Below are positions 35,927 to 46,310 of a stretch of DNA of 64,000 nucleotides, piece after piece. How positions within the stretch are numbered: the stretch's first letter is position 1; each line of letters begins with the position of its first letter. Source of the stretch: Candidatus Binatia bacterium (lineage in GTDB: Bacteria; Desulfobacterota; Binatia; Bin18); the NCBI GenBank assembly GCA_963666315.2, contig CAXXHG010000008.1, positions 32,001-96,000 of the forward strand, written 5' to 3'. The translations under genes and the position numbers were made by a program. The notes under the pieces were generated by a model that worked only from the letters and a program-made list of their open reading frames with translations, was not told the DNA's origin and searched no databases.

Positions 35927-36499
35927 TTGCAACCGGTGTTTTCTGTGCTGAATCTTCCGAACTTTATCACCTTTTTGCGCATCGGGGCCATTCCGATCTT
36001 TCTTATTCTCTTGACGGACGAGCGATATACCGAGGCGCTCGTTGTCTTTATTTTTGCTGGTATCACTGATTCGCTTGATGGTCTGGTCGCCCGTTTGATG
36101 GACTCGCGCACGACGCTGGGTGCTTTCATTGACCCACTGGCTGACAAACTCCTGCTGATCAGCTCTTTTGTCATTCTCGCCTTCTTAGGGTTCATTCCGC
36201 GTTGGTTGACCGTGCTGGTCATCAGTCGCGATGTTATTATTTTGAGCGGCTTTATCGTCCTGTTCTTTGTCACGGGTCACTCGATTGAAGTCCGTCCCAG
36301 TTTCGTGGGGAAAGCCTGTACATTTTTTCAATTACTGACCGTAATTTTAACCCTGGTGGCGCTTCACAACGCGAACTGGACGTACCCGCTGGTGTGGCAT
36401 CTTACCCTGACTCTGGCCGGTGCCGCGACGGTCATATCGGGCTTGCAATATTTGTCTCGCGCCCTGGTGTGGTTCAACCAGCAAGAGGATGTTCCCTAA
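35927..36499 (+). CDS. CDP-alcohol phosphatidyltransferase (PgsA/cardiolipin synthase-like)
   Basis: NLPNFIT..R, DSLDGLVAR......LGAFIDPLADK. Confidence 0.9.
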   Translation: MQPVFSVLNLPNFITFLRIGAIPIFLILLTDERYTEALVVFIFAGITDSLDGLVARLMDSRTTLGAFIDPLADKLLLISSFVILAFLGFIPRWLTVLVISRDVIILSGFIVLFFVTGHSIEVRPSFVGKACTFFQLLTVILTLVALHNANWTYPLVWHLTLTLAGAATVISGLQYLSRALVWFNQQEDVP

Positions 36500-36588
36500 C
36501 GCAGGGACGGGGACCGTTGGTTGAGTAGGCTGCGGGGGGTTGCTAAGCTGCCCGTCTGCTGCATACAACGAATGGCCCGGAGGAGGGG

Positions 36589-37362
36589 GTGAGGATTGTG
36601 ATCCAGGTATTTCCCCGTATCGACAATACCAAATTAATGGACCTGTTTCGGAAGGGAGTCGCCGGCCAGTGGTCGGCAACCGAAATTGACTGGACCCGCC
36701 CACCGACCCTCGACCGCCATGAGAAGCGGGCTTTTGCGATGGTATTGACCCCGATTTACTTAGGTGAGCAAATGGCCATGATCGGGGCCAGCACGGCCAT
36801 TCCGCAGTGCTTTGCCGCGCATGAGACTGAGGCGCAGTTGTATTTGTCGACTTTCCTCCTTGATGAGGCCCGCCATTTTGAGACACTGACCCGCTTCTAC
36901 AACACGCTCAATGAACGCCCGCTTGAAGTCCGTGAATTACGAGACATGTTCCGCTATCAAGCACGTTTGTTCAAGTCGCGCGACCGGGTCGAGTGGTTGT
37001 GGGGCATTCTGCTGAGCGATATTCTTGCCCGTCATTTTTACAGCATACTCGCAAAAGCCCATCCGGACTCTCTGTTTGCGCAAATTGCCGGGCGCATTTT
37101 ACGGGACGAAGCCCGCCATCTCGCCTTTGCCGAGCTGTATTTGCGAGCGGCATTAGAACGTGAGCCGGAGCGTGGACCCGGTTTTCTCCGGACGCGGGAT
37201 GAACTCTTACGCTTAATGGAATCAATCTATGCTGCCCTCAAATCTGAGGCTGTCCTCATAGGCATAGACGGACAGACACTGTTCAATGCCATAAATCGTG
37301 ATATCGAGAACAAAGTCAAACGGTTGCGCCTGCGCGAGGAAGAGGATTCGGCAGCGATATGA
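36589..37362 (+). CDS. Ferritin-like diiron-carboxylate protein (R2lox/AurF/desaturase superfamily)
   Basis: QWSATEIDW, GEQ, two DEARH motifs; stop overlaps the next ATG (ATGA). Confidence 0.82.
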   Translation: MRIVIQVFPRIDNTKLMDLFRKGVAGQWSATEIDWTRPPTLDRHEKRAFAMVLTPIYLGEQMAMIGASTAIPQCFAAHETEAQLYLSTFLLDEARHFETLTRFYNTLNERPLEVRELRDMFRYQARLFKSRDRVEWLWGILLSDILARHFYSILAKAHPDSLFAQIAGRILRDEARHLAFAELYLRAALEREPERGPGFLRTRDELLRLMESIYAALKSEAVLIGIDGQTLFNAINRDIENKVKRLRLREEEDSAAI

Positions 37363-38687
37363 AGGTCGCCGCTCAGCCGGCGGACGCTGTTCCTCCGGCG
37401 GACGCCCCTCGGCCGCGTATGTCGCGCTGGCCACGCGGGAATAAACCTGAGTGGATTGCCGAACGTCAAGAAGTGCTGCGCGCTTTACCGCACTGGGATG
37501 CTGAACATCAGCACGTCTTGGATGGACCGCTCTCCGCGCTCACTCCGTTTCAGGAATGTCTCACCGGCCAGATGACGCTGCCCGTCGGGGTGGTCGGCCC
37601 TGTGGTGCTCAATTGCGGTCAATACCAGTGTGATCCGAAAGGCAAACTCCGCGAGCTAGGGCGGGAAGACCGCCAGGTCTATGTCCCCTTGGCACATACC
37701 GAGGGCGGCCTGTCGGCATCGATACAGCGTGGCGTGAAGGCCGTCGCGCTTGCCGGTGGGGTGCGAACGCAGGTGCTGGCGGATCGTATCACGCGCGGGT
37801 CTTGTTTTGTATTTTCGTCAACGCACGAAGCCGTCGTCCTGGCTGAGTGGGTGAGTGAGCATATGGAAGAAATGATTTCCTGGCTTACAGATCCGGATAA
37901 TCCGCTGCTCTCCCAACAGGTGAATAAAACCGCCGTACTGAGCCGGCATGCGGTGCTGCATGAAGTCGAGACCCACGTCATCGGACCGATGTGCCACGTC
38001 CTGTATCGGTTCACCACTGGGGACGCCTGTGGACCGAATATGATGACGCGCAACGCGTACGCGCTCAATCACGCCTATATCCTGGAGCGCTTCCCGATCG
38101 ACTCCGGCATCACGCCGCTCCGGATTTTTTTGGAAGCCAATATGGGCGGGGATAAAAAACCGAGCCATGCCTTTTTTCAGTTCTCCGGCCACGGCAAGGT
38201 TGTGCATGCTGAGGTCACCGTGCCTGATACGGTGCTGCGACGGGTGTTACGTGTGGCCGGGGTGGATATTCTGGCCTTGGAACACGCCGGACTGCACGGG
38301 GCGCATGCGAGTGGTATGCAGTCGTTCGCCTTTACCCCGGCCTCGGCTATTGCCGCCATTTTTGCTGCAACCGGACAAGATCTGGGGATGGTCGGGACGA
38401 GTAGTATGGCCCAGGTGACAGCAACCGCCGTGACGAGGGGATTGCATCTGTCCATTCGATTTGCCGGACTCGAAGTCGGCACCCTGGGCGGTGGAACCAG
38501 CCTGCCGCATGCGCGCTCGTATCTCCAACTGCTGGACTGCTGGGGTGAGGGCAAAGTCTACCGGTTTGCCCAGATCATTGCCGCGACGGCCCTGTGTCTT
38601 GAACTGTCGGCCTCGGCGAGTATGGCCACGGATGGCAGTCGTAATTTTCTGCAGGCCCATTCTGCGCGGGGCGGGTTGCGGGAATAA
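37359..38687 (+). CDS. Class I HMG-CoA reductase-fold oxidoreductase (divergent)
   Basis: PLAHTEGG, TGDACGPNM, GDKKPS, ATGQDLG, VGTLGGGT, ELS...QAH. Confidence 0.85.
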   Translation: MKVAAQPADAVPPADAPRPRMSRWPRGNKPEWIAERQEVLRALPHWDAEHQHVLDGPLSALTPFQECLTGQMTLPVGVVGPVVLNCGQYQCDPKGKLRELGREDRQVYVPLAHTEGGLSASIQRGVKAVALAGGVRTQVLADRITRGSCFVFSSTHEAVVLAEWVSEHMEEMISWLTDPDNPLLSQQVNKTAVLSRHAVLHEVETHVIGPMCHVLYRFTTGDACGPNMMTRNAYALNHAYILERFPIDSGITPLRIFLEANMGGDKKPSHAFFQFSGHGKVVHAEVTVPDTVLRRVLRVAGVDILALEHAGLHGAHASGMQSFAFTPASAIAAIFAATGQDLGMVGTSSMAQVTATAVTRGLHLSIRFAGLEVGTLGGGTSLPHARSYLQLLDCWGEGKVYRFAQIIAATALCLELSASASMATDGSRNFLQAHSARGGLRE

Positions 38688-38697
38688 CCAGACTTTT

Positions 38698-38723
38698 GTA
38701 AGGGTGGTTCACGAACCCCCTAT
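38698..38723. repeat. Degenerate GTAG-REP hairpin
   Basis: GTAAGGGTGGTTC-AC-GAACCCCCTA, similar to the REP at 46755. Confidence 0.55.
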
Positions 38724-38740
38724 CAGGGGAATATTCTTAT

Positions 38741-39634
38741 ATGGCTACCCCTCTCATGCGTCTCATCGTGAATCCGACCGCCGGCGGCGGGAAAGGCGTT
38801 GCCATTGCACACCAAGTCAGCCGAGAGCTCAAGCAGCGCCAGCTGAAACACGAAGTCTTGTATAGTCGCGCACCGACTGAGCCCAGGCTGTTGGCGGGTC
38901 GGGCTGTAGAAGCAGGCTGCTCCCTGGTGGTCGGCATTGGGGGTGATGGCTTATTGAGTGCGGTAGCAAACGTCTTAGTTGGCACGGACACCGCCCTAGG
39001 GATTATTCCTGCCGGACGGGGCAACGACATTGCGCGCGGCCTTGGTCTTCCGCTCGGTATCCCTGCGGCGTGTCAGGTATTGGCGCAACAACAGATGCAA
39101 CGGATTGATGTCGGCCAGGCGCATGATACCTATTTCTTCTCGGTCGCCCTGATGGGTGTAGCGGCCGACATTAATCGTCGCGCGAATCGGCTGGGACGGT
39201 TCCGGATCAATGCCATCTACTCCCTGCTGACTGTTGTTTCGGTTTTTTTATCTTCTCCTCGGGCCTTTACCATCAGTTGTGATGGACGTGAGCAACGCTG
39301 CTATAGCTGGCTTATTGCCGTCGGTAACACCTGGAGTTCTGGCCGGGGGATGAAACTCGTTCCTGGGGCGAGGGTGGATGACGGTGTCTTAGATACCTGT
39401 CTGGCGCATGGCATGGGGCGGCTGGAGCTTTTGCTGCGGGTCTTTCCGCGTGTGTTCCGCGGGACGCACGTCTACCTGACCGGTATTGAGAGTTTGCGAG
39501 GCAGGGAAATGGTGATCAGTGCGGATAGCCCGTGTGATATCTATGCGGATGGTGAACGGATCGGCCCGTTACCTGTCACACTCCGAGCGATTCCGCAGGC
39601 CCTGAAGGTCATTCTCCCCGCAGACTATCATTAA
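38741..39634 (+). CDS. Diacylglycerol/sphingosine kinase family lipid kinase (YegS/DgkB-like)
   Basis: IVNPTAGGG, GGDG, IPAGRGND, IDVG, DDG, YADGE. Confidence 0.9.
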   Translation: MATPLMRLIVNPTAGGGKGVAIAHQVSRELKQRQLKHEVLYSRAPTEPRLLAGRAVEAGCSLVVGIGGDGLLSAVANVLVGTDTALGIIPAGRGNDIARGLGLPLGIPAACQVLAQQQMQRIDVGQAHDTYFFSVALMGVAADINRRANRLGRFRINAIYSLLTVVSVFLSSPRAFTISCDGREQRCYSWLIAVGNTWSSGRGMKLVPGARVDDGVLDTCLAHGMGRLELLLRVFPRVFRGTHVYLTGIESLRGREMVISADSPCDIYADGERIGPLPVTLRAIPQALKVILPADYH

Positions 39635-39712: not shown

Positions 39713-40493
39713 ATGGCCTGTAAGGAAGAATTCCTTGACGTACGCGGAAAGAAAATTCAAATGCTCTCCGGCGGCTCTGGGGACCCGTTGCTCTACTTAC
39801 ACAGCGCTGGGGGGGGAAGTTGTCTGGCTGCCTTTTTTCGAACAGCTTTCCCAGCACTACACCGTCTATGTTCCGGGCCACCCGGGATTCAGCCAGTCTG
39901 AAGGGCTGGATCAAATCGATAGCATAGAAGATTTGGTCTTCCACTATACAGACCTGATGGATCAAATCGGCCTCGACCAGCCCTATGTGGTAGGTTTGTC
40001 GTTGGGCGGTTGGTTGGCGGCTGAATTGGCAACGCGATATGCGAATCGCATAAAAAAATTAGCCTTGGTCAATCCCGTGGGATTGCGCGTACCCGGGTCC
40101 CCCATGGCGGATATTTTTGCGGCAAACCCACAGGAAACCCGTCAGCTGGTTTTTCATGATCCGGACTCTGAGCTAGCCAAGACGTTTATCCCGGACGAAC
40201 CGTCTCAGGAAGTACTCGAAAATGCTCTGCGGGCGCGAGAGGCGACTGCCCGGGTAGGCTGGAATCCCTATCTATCCAATCCTAAGCTGCGGGGTCGATT
40301 GTATCGCATTACGGTTCCGACTGTGATTGTGTGGGGAGAGTCGGATCGTCTGGTCCCGGTCGAGCATAGCCGAGCGTATCATGAGGGTATTGCCGGCTCA
40401 CAGCTCATCATGCTGCCCGAGTGTGGCCATACCCCACCGTTTGAAAAGCCGCGAGAGACGGCGCAACATTTGGCAGAATTTTTTCAGGCCTGA
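39713..40493 (+). pseudogene. Alpha/beta hydrolase interrupted by one extra base in a G8 run
   Basis: MACKEEF...PLLYLHSAGG continues as EVVWLPFF...HPGF...GLSLGG...WGESD...CGH if the G run at 39809-39816 were G7. Confidence 0.82.
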
Positions 40494-40582: not shown

Positions 40583-41236
40583 ATGGACAAGCTGAATCAG
40601 CCTTTTACCCGCGAGATGTTTGATCGTTTGGACGAAAACGACGATGGGCTCTTCTATACCGCCCCGCGCAAGCTGGTGCATATTGACGCAGGAGCCATTT
40701 CCGCAGCTGGCCAATGTATGGCTAAAACCTTTGCCCCAAACGGCCTCTTGCTCGACTTGATGAGTAGCTGGCGGTCACATCTGCCTGAGGGGTTTGTGAA
40801 GCAAAAATTGCTTGGACTCGGACTGAACGCTGAGGAGATGGCAGACAATCCGGACTTGGACGAGTATATTGTTCACAATCTGAATGCCTACTCCCAGCTC
40901 CCGTTTCCTGACGCCTATTTCGATGGCGTGGTCGTGACGGTTTCGATCCAATACATCATCAAACCGGTTGCAGTCTTTGCTGAGGTCAATCGGGTCTTAA
41001 AGATCGGTCGCCCTTTCCTGGTTCTGTACTCCAATCGCATGTTTCCAACCAAGGCTGTGCGCGTATGGCAAATGCTCCGCGATACAGGCCGGGCCGAGCT
41101 CATCCAGGCGTATTTCCACCAGGCTGGTGGATATGCTGAAGCCGTCTTCGAGGACTGGAGCCCCAACCCTGGAGCGTCTGACCCGCTGTTCGCTGTATCC
41201 GCGTGCAGGCGGGAGGAATCAGGCCCGACGGCTTAA
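40583..41236 (+). CDS. Class I SAM-dependent methyltransferase (type 11)
   Basis: DDGLFYTAPR..HID, LDLMSSWRSHLP, GLGLN, LPFPD..FD, SNRMFPTKA. Confidence 0.87.
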   Translation: MDKLNQPFTREMFDRLDENDDGLFYTAPRKLVHIDAGAISAAGQCMAKTFAPNGLLLDLMSSWRSHLPEGFVKQKLLGLGLNAEEMADNPDLDEYIVHNLNAYSQLPFPDAYFDGVVVTVSIQYIIKPVAVFAEVNRVLKIGRPFLVLYSNRMFPTKAVRVWQMLRDTGRAELIQAYFHQAGGYAEAVFEDWSPNPGASDPLFAVSACRREESGPTA

Positions 41237-41983: not shown

Positions 41984-43273
41984 ATGGCGATTGAAGTCTT
42001 CATGCCCCGCATGAGCGACACCATGGAGGAAGGCAAGATCCTCAAATGGCTCAAAAAGGTTGGGGATCAGGTAGAGCTGGGCGATATTATCGCCGAGGTA
42101 GAAACCGATAAGGCGGATATGGAAATGGAAGCGCTTGACGCTGGGGTCTTGACTGAAATCAGAGCCCAAGAAGGGGAGTCTGTCCCGGTTGGGGATATCA
42201 TTGCGTTGTTAGGAGACGCAGCTGAGGTTGGGAAGGTTGAGGCAGCGCCACCGGCAGCGGTGAAAAAGACGATACGCCCGTCTGATTCCCCCCCAGAAAA
42301 GAAAGTTCGAAAACTTCGCGACACGACACCCAAACGAAAATTGACGGCTCGTAAAAAGGGGCAACGACTCTTAGCCTCTCCCCTTGTGAGGAAGATCGCT
42401 GCCGAGCGCGGCATTGATCTGACGACCGTCCCAGGTAGCGGCCCAGGCGGGCGGATAGTGAAACACGATCTGGAGATTCCCGAGACGGCTCCTGCCGCGG
42501 TGTCGGCCGAACCACACGGGACCGAGAGTGCACAGCAGACAACGGCTGCAGCAGCTTCGGGTGTACCAGCTTCTTCAAGAGACCGAGTTGAGTCTAGAGT
42601 TGAGCCGTTTTCACGCATGCGCGCGACTATTGCTAAACGGATGGCTGATAGCATGCGCGAGGCGCCCCATTTTTATGTCACTATCGAAATCGATATGTCA
42701 GAATCGGTTCGGCTACGTACCTCACTCAAACTGAGTGACCGGGTAGAAGCCGAGGTGACCTATACACATCTGCTGGTCAAAGCAACAGCGGTGGCGCTGG
42801 AGCGACACCCGAGCATGAATGCTGCTTTTGCCGGCGATGGGCGGGAGCTCAAGAGCGAGATCAATATCGGGATTGCGGTTGCGCTTGAGGATGGGCTGAT
42901 TGTCCCGGTGCTGCACGGCTGTCAGAAAATGTCGTTGCTCGACGTTGCGGCTCAGGCCCATGCGCTTGTTGAGCGCGCACGTATGGGCAAACCGACCTCA
43001 AAAGATTTATCTGGTGGGACCTTTACGATTTCTAATCTTGGCATGTATTCTGTAGAGCACTTTACGGCGGTGATTAATCCGCCCCAGGCGGCTATTCTTG
43101 CGACCAGCGCGATTAAAGAGCGGCCTGTGGTACGAGACGGGCAGGTCGTTATCTCCCGGACCATGATGGTGACCCTGTCGTGTGACCATCGGGTTCTGGA
43201 CGGTGCAACCGGAGCCCGGTTTCTGGAAGAGCTGAAGAGTTTATTGGAGAATCCTGTCGGCTTAATGGTGTAA
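41984..43273 (+). CDS. 2-oxoacid dehydrogenase E2 (PDH-type dihydrolipoamide acyltransferase)
   Basis: Lipoyl domain ETDKA, E3-binding ASPLVRK..GSGPGGRI, TFTISNLG, DHRVLDG. Confidence 0.93.
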   Translation: MAIEVFMPRMSDTMEEGKILKWLKKVGDQVELGDIIAEVETDKADMEMEALDAGVLTEIRAQEGESVPVGDIIALLGDAAEVGKVEAAPPAAVKKTIRPSDSPPEKKVRKLRDTTPKRKLTARKKGQRLLASPLVRKIAAERGIDLTTVPGSGPGGRIVKHDLEIPETAPAAVSAEPHGTESAQQTTAAAASGVPASSRDRVESRVEPFSRMRATIAKRMADSMREAPHFYVTIEIDMSESVRLRTSLKLSDRVEAEVTYTHLLVKATAVALERHPSMNAAFAGDGRELKSEINIGIAVALEDGLIVPVLHGCQKMSLLDVAAQAHALVERARMGKPTSKDLSGGTFTISNLGMYSVEHFTAVINPPQAAILATSAIKERPVVRDGQVVISRTMMVTLSCDHRVLDGATGARFLEELKSLLENPVGLMV

Positions 43274-43303
43274 CGGAACCCTACAACGGTGTAGAGGAAA
43301 TGA

Positions 43304-44713
43304 ATGGAACGATATGATTTGGTGGTGATAGGAGCGGGTCCTGGCGGGTATGTGGCGGCCATACGCGCCACTCAGCTTGGTCTCAAAACTGCGGTAGTGG
43401 AAAAAGACCGCCCCGGCGGAGTATGTCTCAACTGGGGCTGTATTCCGTCAAAAGCGATTCTCACTTCAGCCGAAATGTATGAAGACTTCAAGCACGGTGA
43501 CCAGTACGGTATCAAGGTCAGCGGATTGTCTTTCGACTACGCCCAGGTCATCAAGCGCTCGCGTGATGTCGCCGGGCGGTTGGCCAAAGGTGTTGAATAC
43601 CTGCTCAAAAAGAACAAGGTTCCGTTACTCAGGGGAGCCGGTCGCATTGAGAATACGAATCGGGTGATTATTGAGCCGAGCAGGCAAAATGCGCAAAATG
43701 CGCAAGATACGCAGCGGGTCGAAGCCGACCGGATCTTAATCGCAACGGGATCGCGCGAACGGACCCTGCCCGGACTCGAGATCGATGGCAGGCAAGTCCT
43801 GACGAGTTATGAAGCCCTGACAGAACAGGAAATACCGGAGGCGATTGTCATTATTGGCGGTGGTGCGATTGGGGTTGAGTTCGCCTATATCTACAGCACG
43901 TTTGGCAGTCGGGTGACTGTTGTTGAGATGGAAAAACAGCTGCTGCCCGGCGTTGATAGCGAGGTGGCGCGAGAGCTTGAACGGTCGTTTAAGAAAAAGG
44001 GTATCGAGATCCTGACCAACACCAAATTCCACAGTCTGAAAAAATATCCGGGCCGGGTTGAAGTGCTCTTGGATAACGAGACCGATCAGAAGAAACGCAC
44101 GGCCAATAAAGTCCTGGTTGCCGTGGGTCGGGCCCCACTGAGTGCCGATCTGGGTCTTGAAGACGCCGGGGTTGCCTTAGATCGAGGTTTTATCAAGGTC
44201 AACGAACAATTGCAGACGACCAATCCTGCGATTTATGCCATAGGCGACGTGAATGGCCCACCCCTGCTGGCCCACGCCGCTACGGAAGAAGGTCTAGCCG
44301 CGGTCGAATTCATGACAGGCGAGCGGGAGAAAGGTCTCGACCCGACCCGCATCCCAGCGTGTATTTATTGTCAGCCTCAAGTGGCAGTCCTTGGGCTGAG
44401 CGAAGAGCAAGCCCAAGCACAAGGACATGAAGTCAAAATCGGCAAATTCCCGTTTCGCGCGTTGGGCAAGGCGCTAGCCTCCGGTCATGACGAAGGCATG
44501 GTCAAATTAGTTGTTGATAAAGAGTATGGCGAGATTCTTGGGTGTCACATTATTGGTCGGGGAGCGACCGATCTCATTGCCGAGATTGGGCTGGCACGGA
44601 CGCTTGAAGCGACAACTGCGGAGCTGCGTGAAACCGTTCATGCCCATCCGACGTTGTCTGAGGCCATTATGGAAGCTGCGCTGGATGCTGAAGGGCGAGG
44701 GATAAATTTCTAG
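43304..44713 (+). CDS. lpdA: Dihydrolipoamide dehydrogenase
   Basis: GAGPGG, GGVCLNWGCIPSK, GGGAIG, LAH, HAHPTLSE. Confidence 0.96.
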   Translation: MERYDLVVIGAGPGGYVAAIRATQLGLKTAVVEKDRPGGVCLNWGCIPSKAILTSAEMYEDFKHGDQYGIKVSGLSFDYAQVIKRSRDVAGRLAKGVEYLLKKNKVPLLRGAGRIENTNRVIIEPSRQNAQNAQDTQRVEADRILIATGSRERTLPGLEIDGRQVLTSYEALTEQEIPEAIVIIGGGAIGVEFAYIYSTFGSRVTVVEMEKQLLPGVDSEVARELERSFKKKGIEILTNTKFHSLKKYPGRVEVLLDNETDQKKRTANKVLVAVGRAPLSADLGLEDAGVALDRGFIKVNEQLQTTNPAIYAIGDVNGPPLLAHAATEEGLAAVEFMTGEREKGLDPTRIPACIYCQPQVAVLGLSEEQAQAQGHEVKIGKFPFRALGKALASGHDEGMVKLVVDKEYGEILGCHIIGRGATDLIAEIGLARTLEATTAELRETVHAHPTLSEAIMEAALDAEGRGINF

Positions 44714-44769
44714 CACTATTTGGGATAGTGCTGAGAGAGTGCTGAGATAGTGGAGTCTGCGAGCACTGT

Positions 44770-45465
44770 ATGAAACTGGCGTGTGCTGATCTTGGTGTCA
44801 TTGACTACTCCCTCGCATTGGGGTTGCAGCACACGCTGGTCGCCCAACGCTATGCAGACGAAATCCCCGATACGCTCCTACTGCTAGAACATCCACCCGT
44901 GTTTACCTTGGGTCGAGGCGGAGACGCAAAACACCTGCTTACCCCTGGTCAGGTCCCCGTCCAGAGAGTCAGCCGTGGCGGCGATGTTACTTTTCATGGG
45001 CCGGGGCAATTGGTTGGCTATCCTATTGTCGCCCTCAAGCAGCATGGTAAAGACGTACACGTCTATTTGCGACAACTAGAAGACGTGCTGATCTCGACCT
45101 TGGCAGAATGGGGTATTGGTGCCCACAGGCAAGACGGACTGACCGGGGTGTGGGTTGGATCGCATAAGATCGCGTCGATTGGTATAGGCGTACGCCGCTG
45201 GGTTACGTTTCACGGTTTCGCGCTCAACGTCAATACCGACCTGAGCTATTTCTCAGCCATCGTTCCGTGTGGGCTGTATGGCGTCCGCATCACGTCCGTG
45301 CAACAGCTGCTCGCAACAGCGGTCCCTCTCGGCGATATGAAGTCGGCTGTGGCACGCGGTTTTGCCCAAGTATTTGGTCACCAGGAGATAGTATGGAACA
45401 CGAACTTGCCGAAGTCAGCTCTAACGATGTCAGCTCTGAGCGAGCAACCGGCTCACGCCCTGTGA
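44770..45465 (+). CDS. lipB: Octanoyltransferase
   Basis: LLEHPPVFTLG, RGGDVTFHGPGQLVGYP, KIASIG, HGFALN, IVPCG. Confidence 0.95.
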   Translation: MKLACADLGVIDYSLALGLQHTLVAQRYADEIPDTLLLLEHPPVFTLGRGGDAKHLLTPGQVPVQRVSRGGDVTFHGPGQLVGYPIVALKQHGKDVHVYLRQLEDVLISTLAEWGIGAHRQDGLTGVWVGSHKIASIGIGVRRWVTFHGFALNVNTDLSYFSAIVPCGLYGVRITSVQQLLATAVPLGDMKSAVARGFAQVFGHQEIVWNTNLPKSALTMSALSEQPAHAL

Positions 45466-46310
45466 GGCGGCGCCATCCGGACTGGATTAAGGTCCGTATG
45501 CCGGGCGGTCCGGATTATAAACAGACCCATGCGATAGTTGCGGCGTTCAAGCTGCATACCGTCTGTCAGGAGGCGCAATGCCCCAATATAGGTGAATGCT
45601 GGGGGCATGGTACCGCAACGTTTATGCTGATGGGCGACGTCTGTACGCGCAATTGTCGTTTCTGTGCCGTGAGCCACGGCCGTATGGTTAAGCTGGATCC
45701 TGACGAACCACGTCGTGTAGCCGATGCAGCGCTCAAGATGGGGCTGTCTCATGTGGTGGTGACTTCAGTCAACCGAGATGATCTACCCGACGGTGGGGCG
45801 AGCCATTTTGCCGAAACCGTTCATGCGATTAAGCGGCTCCAACCAGACTGCACTATTGAAGTGTTGACACCGGATTTCCAGGGCAATGAAGACGCGGTGT
45901 CCGTCGTGGCGCAGTCGCCCATTGATGTTTTTAATCACAACACAGAGAGCGTACCGCGCTTGTATAAACGCGTCCGCCCTGGCGCAAAGTATGAGCGCTC
46001 CCTGCGCGTACTAGAAAAAGTCAAAGAAGTCCGGCCCAATTTAAAGACCAAGACGGGTCTCATGCTCGGCCTAGGGGAGACATATGCAGAGCTATTGAGT
46101 GTTTTTGGTGATCTGCGCGCAGTGGATTGCAACATCCTCACGCTTGGTCAATATCTCCAACCGTCTCAAGAGCAGTTGCCTGTTGAACGCTACGTCCATC
46201 CGGACGAATTCAAGATTTTACGTGAAGAAGCGCTCGGGCTCGGTTTCCGTCATGTCGAATCCGGCCCGCTTGTGCGCAGCTCGTATCATGCCTGGAAACA
46301 TGTGGGGTAA
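45393..46310 (+). CDS. lipA: Lipoyl synthase
   Basis: TVCQEAQCPNIGECW, CTRNCRFC, GQYLQP, GPLVRSSY; AGGAG RBS before ATG 45393. Confidence 0.96.
   Translation: MEHELAEVSSNDVSSERATGSRPVRRRHPDWIKVRMPGGPDYKQTHAIVAAFKLHTVCQEAQCPNIGECWGHGTATFMLMGDVCTRNCRFCAVSHGRMVKLDPDEPRRVADAALKMGLSHVVVTSVNRDDLPDGGASHFAETVHAIKRLQPDCTIEVLTPDFQGNEDAVSVVAQSPIDVFNHNTESVPRLYKRVRPGAKYERSLRVLEKVKEVRPNLKTKTGLMLGLGETYAELLSVFGDLRAVDCNILTLGQYLQPSQEQLPVERYVHPDEFKILREEALGLGFRHVESGPLVRSSYHAWKHVG

Follow-up and report, generated by a model that had tools for sequence, protein, structure and literature searches.

This analysis concerns three adjacent genes in a 64,000-nucleotide stretch of the genome of a Candidatus Binatia bacterium (the window; assembly GCA_963666315.2, contig CAXXHG010000008.1, positions 32,001 to 96,000), which encode a ferritin-like di-metal oxidase, a protein with the fold of HMG-CoA reductase (HMGR; HMG, 3-hydroxy-3-methylglutaryl) and a lipid kinase of the diacylglycerol kinase (DAGK) family. 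On the + strand the genes of the region follow one another in the order guaA, dnaE, hflX, a pgsA-like gene, the ferritin-like gene, the HMGR-fold gene, the DAGK kinase gene and genes for an alpha/beta hydrolase, a methyltransferase and RNase HII (Table 1). An earlier note on this DNA had singled out the trio as a candidate lipid pathway, and the layout that it described, with an ATGA overlap between the first two genes and a short gap before the third, is borne out by the open reading frames (ORFs). Contigs from four RNA-labelled libraries map to the pgsA, oxidase, reductase and kinase genes, and one such contig of 255 nt, identical to the window, spans the ATGA junction; this is a weak hint of expression of the trio, since carry-over of DNA is possible. 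Promoter-like and terminator-like sites around the trio were no more frequent than in shuffled sequences in a scan of the region.

Table 1. Features at and beside the oxidase-reductase-kinase locus, in positions of the window.
Feature	Position	Strand	Evidence and remarks
PgsA-like CDP-alcohol phosphatidyltransferase	35927..36499	+	PF01066 114 bits; TIGR00560 106.7 bits against a cut-off of 109.1; context only
Ferritin-like di-metal oxidase, uncurated family, 257 amino acids (aa)	36589..37362	+	Sub-threshold R2/AurF/R2lox matches only
ATGA stop/start overlap of the oxidase and reductase genes	37359..37362	+	Read directly
Putative FcrA-type (class-I-HMGR-derived) acyl-thioester reductase, 442 aa	37359..38687	+	PF00368 (HMG-CoA_red) 258 bits
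53-nt spacer, reductase to kinase	38688..38740	+	Read directly; contains a single weak hairpin with a T-run
DAGK_cat/YegS-family lipid kinase, 297 aa	38741..39634	+	PF00781 97.6 bits; PF19279 124.5 bits; both above cut-offs
Alpha/beta hydrolase, neighbour	39735..40493	+	Pfam assignment; outside the module by phyletic pattern
S-adenosylmethionine-dependent methyltransferase, neighbour	40583..41236	+	Pfam assignment; outside the module by phyletic pattern

The enzyme with which the reductase has to be compared is FcrA, a fatty acyl-CoA reductase derived from class I HMGR (Grossi et al., ISME J 2025, PMC11948995). According to the main text of that paper, purified FcrA converts acyl-CoA of C14 or longer to the fatty alcohol with NADPH, is inactive on HMG-CoA and on free C16:1 aldehyde (section 18) and is not inhibited by simvastatin; its context is wax-ester synthesis, and a role in ether-lipid formation is proposed (sections 18 and 20). 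The marks given there (section 19) are the retention of the catalytic residues Glu559, Lys691, Asp767 and His866, together with the replacement of Ser684 by Glu, of 'Lys795' by a small residue and of Leu862 by a bulky one, which is Trp in N. pharaonis. The printed 'Lys795' is taken here as Lys735, from the N. pharaonis numbering in the same paper.

Among solved structures, the best relatives of the window reductase are an archaeal class I HMGR (1.8e-35) and the human class I HMGR (6e-27), and with the HMGR equivalog model TIGR00533 it scores 178.7 bits against a cut-off of 441.8. When aligned with the human enzyme, its residues E115, K266, D341 and H434 correspond to the catalytic tetrad, which is intact in all 70 oxidase-linked copies of the reductase, and K280 aligns with Lys704. 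In the substrate pocket, E259 replaces Ser684, A310 replaces Lys735 and F430 replaces Leu862. The same Glu and Phe are found in 70/70 of the oxidase-linked copies, in which the site of Lys735 never holds Lys (Ala in 37, Thr in 24, Val in 6, and Ser, Leu and Met in one each). Judging by these residues, the enzyme is not an HMG-CoA reductase. Because it carries the FcrA signatures, its probable activity is the reduction of an acyl thioester to the alcohol, as had been supposed in the earlier note; the further statement made there, that no pathway of this kind has been described, is only partly true, the reductase family having already been described as FcrA.

The oxidase-linked reductases nevertheless form a group of their own. 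In a full-library search the members of this subfamily score 340-538 bits and proteins outside it at most 191 bits. Furthermore, His752 is replaced by Thr and Asn755 by Ser throughout the 70 linked copies, whereas Asn755 is retained in 108 of the 111 representatives that are the next relatives; the latter are termed FcrA-like because 103 of them have Glu or Asp at 684 and 104 have Phe at 862. A quick maximum-likelihood tree was rooted on two class II sequences and contains one clearly canonical class I sequence (P0472, with Ser, Lys and Leu at the sites of Ser684, Lys735 and Leu862, and an S/H/N/L signature) and none of the sequences of Grossi et al. In this tree the oxidase-linked reductases make up a clade of 23 rows (Shimodaira-Hasegawa-like approximate likelihood-ratio test, SH-aLRT, 100) with a stem length of 1.14, nested with FcrA-like proteins in a clade of 64 rows (SH-aLRT 95) that leaves P0472 outside. 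On the strength of the signature residues and the tree position, the reductase is provisionally filed as a divergent FcrA-type enzyme belonging to a separate, long-branched clade. Like FcrA as described in the main text of its paper, the linked reductases combine the HMGR fold, the catalytic tetrad and the three pocket changes with occurrence in bacteria that have no mevalonate pathway; unlike FcrA, they carry the two additional substitutions at 752 and 755, have no Lad or acyl carrier protein (ACP) domain, and nearly always adjoin a ferritin-like oxidase and often a DAGK kinase. The words 'ferritin', 'iron' and 'kinase' have no match in that main text, although some such features may already appear in domain figures of the supplement.

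With the window protein as query, 160 relatives of the oxidase were found, and 588 with a high-GC member as query; where their source records give a name, it is 'ferritin-like domain-containing', 'diiron oxygenase' or 'AurF'. The residues E60, E93-x2-H96, D144 and E174-x2-H177 are invariant in 26/26 diverse aligned members. None of the Pfam and NCBIfam models reaches its cut-off on the window oxidase, there is no match to Pfam Ald_deCOase, and the R2lox model NF006200 gives 33.9 bits against a cut-off of 194. The nearest solved fold to an AlphaFold2 model of the protein (mean predicted local distance difference test score, pLDDT, 89) is that of R2lox (template modelling score, TM, about 0.7; E 2e-5), followed by aldehyde-deformylating oxygenase (ADO), and a profile-versus-PDB search likewise returns R2lox (7e-8) and ADO (3.6e-7), with the ADO match covering the C-terminal half only (profile positions 136-244). 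By alignment and model, then, the oxidase represents a predicted new ferritin-like family nearest to R2lox and ADO, and the lipid-binding nature of these nearest proteins agrees with the lipid-type enzyme that had been proposed.

With R2lox (4HR0, 3EE4, 6QRZ) the oxidase shares a ferritin-like helical bundle and a two-His, four-carboxylate metal site. It differs in its low identity (16-18%) and in its third carboxylate, Asp144, which occupies the position adjoining the one aligned with Glu167. It is also not an R2lox in the strict sense, because in the alignment the places of the cross-linked pair Val72-Tyr162 are taken by Ala63 and Trp138, which do not vary within the oxidase family. R2lox itself is not known to have an assigned function, and the linkage described below would place its relatives in a functional context for the first time. 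In two protein atlas look-ups only generic ferritin-like clusters came up. A set of long-form oxidases (330-390 aa; P0109-P0120, loci L096-L103) has a C-terminal extension that ends in a conserved Cys-rich motif, C..C..LCR.R.VR.

Conservation of the gene neighbourhood was surveyed at 160 oxidase loci, of which 80 came from species genomes and the other 80 from contigs of metagenomes, with near-duplicates kept in and with a metagenome query picked to favour distant oxidase members. Linkage being defined as a reductase within 2.5 kb of the oxidase, the two genes are linked at 122 loci; the reductase is absent from seven testable loci and 31 lack enough flank, which corresponds to 122/129 of the testable loci. 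The pair is found co-directional, convergent and reversed, that is, in three gene orders. Within the oxidase tree, the Binatia-type clade has the order pgsA-oxidase-reductase-kinase, the Sulfobacillus-type clade has convergent oxidase and reductase genes, the long-form clade has the reductase first and then the oxidase, one of two high-GC clades has oxidase-reductase-kinase and the other a kinase divergent upstream, and a small Sulfoacidibacillus-type clade has the oxidase alone. The kinase adjoins in 71 loci, which without exception belong to the Binatia-type clade and the pair of high-GC clades (A, C1 and C2), in two arrangements and with no testable absence. By these counts the arrangement of the trio is far beyond chance. 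A tblastn search of 72,556 plasmid records with a C1-clade oxidase found nothing.

The genes also travel together at the level of genomes. Among 201 genomes sampled from the class, the oxidase is present in 25, namely in 24/24 of the window's family plus the source genome (G000), and in 0/176 of the others. The reductase occurs in the same oxidase-bearing genomes plus one genome of the sister family (G335), and a kinase orthologue (at least 324 bits) occurs in 23 of the 24 family genomes, the one miss falling at a contig end, in G000 and in the sister-family genome, and is missing from the other 19 oxidase-less families of the class. The trio thus shares one phyletic pattern within the class. 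As a conserved unit, then, the trio put forward in the earlier note holds in three clades and, by its shared phyletic pattern, within the class, but not in the Bacillota-type loci, where the kinase is unlinked. Nine contigs (L007, L008, L026, L029, L030, L034, L037, L042 and L047) show synteny of the Binatia type and are 63-93% identical to the window protein, yet are titled 'uncultured Enterobacteriaceae' or 'Klebsiella pneumoniae', and these records look mislabelled.

The pgsA-like gene has a different history. Orthologues of it (160-229 bits) follow dnaE-hflX in 5/5 other genomes of the class examined, and dnaE-hflX-pgsA is kept in 4/4 genomes from elsewhere in the class, outside the window's family, in which the locus lacks the oxidase, reductase and kinase genes, so the block appears to have been inserted downstream of a housekeeping pgsA. 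The CDP-alcohol phosphatidyltransferase, which had been noted just upstream of the trio, is therefore part of an ancestral context outside the module, and is probably a housekeeping enzyme. The kinase scores 109.5 bits with TIGR00147 against a cut-off of 118.65.

Coupling of an HMGR-fold reductase to a kinase is also found beyond the oxidase-linked clade. A C-terminal kinase region of the APH/EcKL type is present in 74 of the 111 nearest FcrA-like representatives, and such a kinase was seen in all 8 long FcrA-like proteins scanned with Pfam. Named examples of these kinase-fused proteins come from Spirochaetota and Bacteroidia, and one, P0396 (916 aa), is called 'phosphotransferase' in Spirochaetota records. 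The architecture of P0453 and P0467 is fatty acyl-AMP ligase (FAAL)-ACP-reductase-kinase, and one kinase-fused protein of the group (P0391-P0515; examples P0453, P0467 and P0437) carries DUF3419, which we take to be BtaA-like. These fusions resemble the present system in that a reductase core with Glu684 and Phe862 is coupled to a kinase, and differ from it in the fold of the kinase, which is unrelated, and in that the kinase is part of the reductase polypeptide instead of having a gene of its own; no ferritin-like domain was present in the 12 kinase-fused proteins scanned. In a genome from another family of the class (G272; locus L216, G272:C41, 4799-10679), a different FcrA-like gene overlaps a DAGK/YegS gene. 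Reductase-kinase coupling is thus recurrent and proceeds via two unrelated kinase folds, and reduction followed by phosphorylation looks like a recurring design, given the fusion to an unrelated kinase in 74/111 of the closest FcrA-like relatives. Downstream of the FcrA-like/DAGK pair of G272 lie a 395-aa ORF of unknown nature and then an 891-aa PPDK_N/PEP-utiliser protein, with no ferritin-like gene.

The isoprenoid background of the source genome (4.99 Mb, 92% complete) was examined as well. The genome has one HMGR-fold gene and the methylerythritol phosphate (MEP) pathway genes IspH, IspG and DXR, and in the whole genome there is neither a match to HMG_CoA_synt_C (HMGS_C) nor a mevalonate kinase above cut-off. 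The earlier note had pointed to mevalonate versus MEP genes as a check and had reported no HMG-CoA synthase (HMGS) or GHMP kinase in the window; the genome comes out on the MEP side, and neither enzyme was found among the 14 window ORFs scanned. Five other oxidase-carrying genomes are likewise of the MEP type without HMGS_C, which makes 6/6 examined with the source genome. The results indicate that many proteins annotated as 'HMG-CoA reductase (NADPH)' in bacteria with the MEP pathway are misnamed. The best archaeal-type HMGS match in the source genome reaches 130 bits against the TIGR00748 cut-off of 353; it is an HMGS-like/KAS-III-like protein of 476 aa with a DUF35 (ChsH2-type) OB-fold fusion (G000:C20:61520-62539; locus L093:1090-3991), beside which lie genes for an HpcH/HpaI-type lyase and a MaoC/mesaconyl-CoA hydratase. 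Two IspH (LytB) matches occur in the source genome, at G000:C9:1063-1881 (a 595-aa frame) and G000:C8:11079-12119 (a 493-aa frame), and as both frames are longer than plain IspH, both may be fusions or extended ORFs. A second HMGR (Pfam 366-386 bits) is present in the genomes of Sulfoacidibacillus (L087, G002) and Sulfobacillus (L088, G001), where HMGS_C was not found and IspG is present; this second enzyme is class-II-like, as phmmer with the window reductase misses it.

Taken together, these observations suggest a module in which an FcrA-type enzyme reduces an acyl thioester to the alcohol, an O2-dependent oxidase modifies the chain and a kinase phosphorylates the product, a reading that we judge to have about an even chance of being correct; the general preference of the earlier note for a lipid module over mevalonate synthesis is supported. 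By analogy with the biochemistry of the family, and given the signature residues, the reductase would carry out an NADPH-dependent, four-electron reduction of a fatty acyl-CoA or acyl-phosphopantetheine thioester, and not of HMG-CoA, to the primary alcohol. The di-metal oxidase would hydroxylate or desaturate the acyl chain with O2, most likely before the reduction, an order that would explain why the linked reductases have pocket changes of their own (His752 to Thr and Asn755 to Ser). The DAGK-family kinase would phosphorylate the alcohol or an acylated derivative of it, allowing entry into phospholipid-like head-group chemistry. Linkage, phyletic pattern and fusions are what suggest the oxidase and kinase steps. 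What the module would be expected to yield is an oxidised fatty alcohol or long-chain diol phosphate, or else a membrane lipid into which either is incorporated. Neighbours of the high-GC loci comprise a PlsC-like acyltransferase (11 loci), a membrane FA_desaturase-family protein and FAAL, as well as ACP, FabF, a GT28-type glycosyltransferase and a B12 radical-SAM protein; an actinobacterial locus has a thioesterase after the reductase.

Several points weigh against this module. The substrate, the order of the steps and the product are all inferred by us from the genes, and the reductase tree is a quick one in which only a single class I sequence is clearly canonical. In a quick, long-branched tree of the kinases, the linked ones are not set apart from their paralogues as a single clade. 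In the Bacillota-type clades the kinase is unlinked (13 testable absences, 0 presences), and the oxidase occurs without the reductase in the Sulfoacidibacillus-type clade (3 testable absences, with only the class-II-like HMGR in G002). Conversely, G335 has reductase and kinase without the oxidase: at its locus (L211, G335:C46, 4513-7705) pgsA is followed after a 153-nt gap by the reductase and the kinase, and no oxidase was found there or elsewhere in this genome, which is 95% complete. These three cases indicate that the parts of the module are separable. The acyl chain, moreover, may not be long everywhere, since some Sulfobacillus loci hold a short/branched-chain MbcS-like acyl-CoA synthetase, a gene that precedes the oxidase in 12/38 of the Bacillota-type loci. 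Lastly, a wax ester synthase/diacylglycerol acyltransferase (WS/DGAT) gene in the source genome offers an ordinary sink for fatty alcohol.

That sink is the starting point of the first alternative, in which the reductase merely supplies fatty alcohol to wax-ester or ether-lipid synthesis encoded elsewhere, the kinase is a general diacylglycerol kinase, and the oxidase is an unrelated desaturase or hydroxylase travelling along. Such a supply would fit the wax-ester context and proposed ether-lipid role of FcrA (PMC11948995, sections 18 and 20), the presence of WS/DGAT in the source genome and in 12/26 family genomes sampled, and the fact that the window kinase is the only strong DAGK_cat gene of the source genome, the other DAGK_cat matches reaching at most 35 bits. 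However, WS/DGAT was not found in the other 14/26 of these family genomes, as against oxidase and reductase in 24/24. The kinase, missing as it is from the 19 oxidase-less families, is not a class-wide housekeeping enzyme, and its linkage recurs in three clades that differ in gene order. Together with the frequency of kinase fusions in the sister FcrA-like group, these findings render the alternative unlikely, if still worth serious consideration.

A more specific form of the proposed module, and a distinctly doubtful one, is that it makes long-chain diol-based membrane lipids. Here a fatty acyl thioester would first be hydroxylated by the oxidase at a site adjoining the head group and then converted by the reductase to a 1,2- or 1,3-alkanediol; the PlsC-like enzymes encoded nearby would acylate the diol, and the kinase would phosphorylate the resulting diacylglycerol look-alike to a phosphatidic-acid analogue. 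If true, it would supply genes for the diol lipids, free of glycerol, that are known from Thermomicrobium and whose synthesis is described in the T. roseum genome paper (PMC2615216) as having details that remain to be clarified. The literature search returned no paper on diol-lipid genes, and PF00368 has no match in the Thermus thermophilus control genome.

An alkane-forming pair like that of cyanobacterial acyl-ACP reductase (AAR) and ADO, in which the HMGR-fold enzyme would release a fatty aldehyde for the ferritin-like protein to deformylate to a hydrocarbon, appears very unlikely. The two systems resemble each other in that the gene for a thioester reductase adjoins that for a di-iron enzyme of the ferritin-like type with affinity for fatty chains; the oxidase family profile matches ADO chains over the C-terminal half (3.6e-7), Foldseek gives ADO TM scores of 0.65-0.78 when normalised to the target, and one family member is named 'long-chain fatty aldehyde decarbonylase' in its source. 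The R2lox matches nevertheless beat the ADO matches, ADO is not a nearer relative of the oxidase than R2lox is, and the present reductase has a different fold from AAR, conserves all the residues for the second reduction and, by analogy with FcrA, would make the alcohol rather than free aldehyde (purified FcrA yields the alcohol and is inactive on free C16:1 aldehyde; PMC11948995, section 18). Furthermore, such a scheme leaves the conserved kinase, which belongs to the module, without a role.

The mevalonate-like branch that had also been entertained, drawing mevalonate from HMG-CoA of leucine catabolism or of the HMGS-like/DUF35 protein, can appeal to the intact catalytic tetrad and to the fusion at G000:C20 (130 bits against 353), but is extremely improbable because none of the HMG-binding residues (Ser684, Lys735, Leu862) is retained in any of the 70 copies, the TIGR00533 score is 179 against 442, no mevalonate kinase is above cut-off beside the MEP genes, and 6/6 genomes examined are of the MEP type without HMGS_C.

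What sets the proposed module apart is a distinct branch of FcrA, an enzyme recognised only in 2025 and, in the main text of its paper, so far tied to wax esters, that is locked to a new family of di-metal oxidases and, in several lineages, to a lipid kinase. Linkage and fusions suggest that bacteria have a hitherto unrecognised class of lipid intermediates, namely fatty alcohols or diols in phosphorylated form. In the literature search, only the original FcrA paper combined 'FcrA' with 'fatty acyl-CoA reductase', and no paper was found combining 'HMG-CoA reductase', 'ferritin-like' and 'gene cluster', 'R2-like ligand-binding oxidase' and 'HMG-CoA', or 'Binatota' and 'mevalonate'. Since cultured Sulfobacillus strains carry the oxidase-reductase pair, among them Sulfobacillus harzensis DSM 109850 (locus L065), the system is experimentally accessible; Sulfoacidibacillus thermotolerans Y002 (L051) has only the oxidase.

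The two genes that follow the kinase in the window were considered as further members of the module and rejected. Homologues of the alpha/beta hydrolase (E<=1e-30) occur in 129/201 genomes of the class and single-copy homologues of the methyltransferase in 75/201, in both cases including families without the trio; these tallies include the unpublished genomes G334 and G238. Further along, downstream of RNase HII (window 41984-46310), genes for a 2-oxoacid dehydrogenase E2 component, dihydrolipoyl dehydrogenase, an LplA/B-type lipoyl ligase and lipoyl synthase stand in a row.

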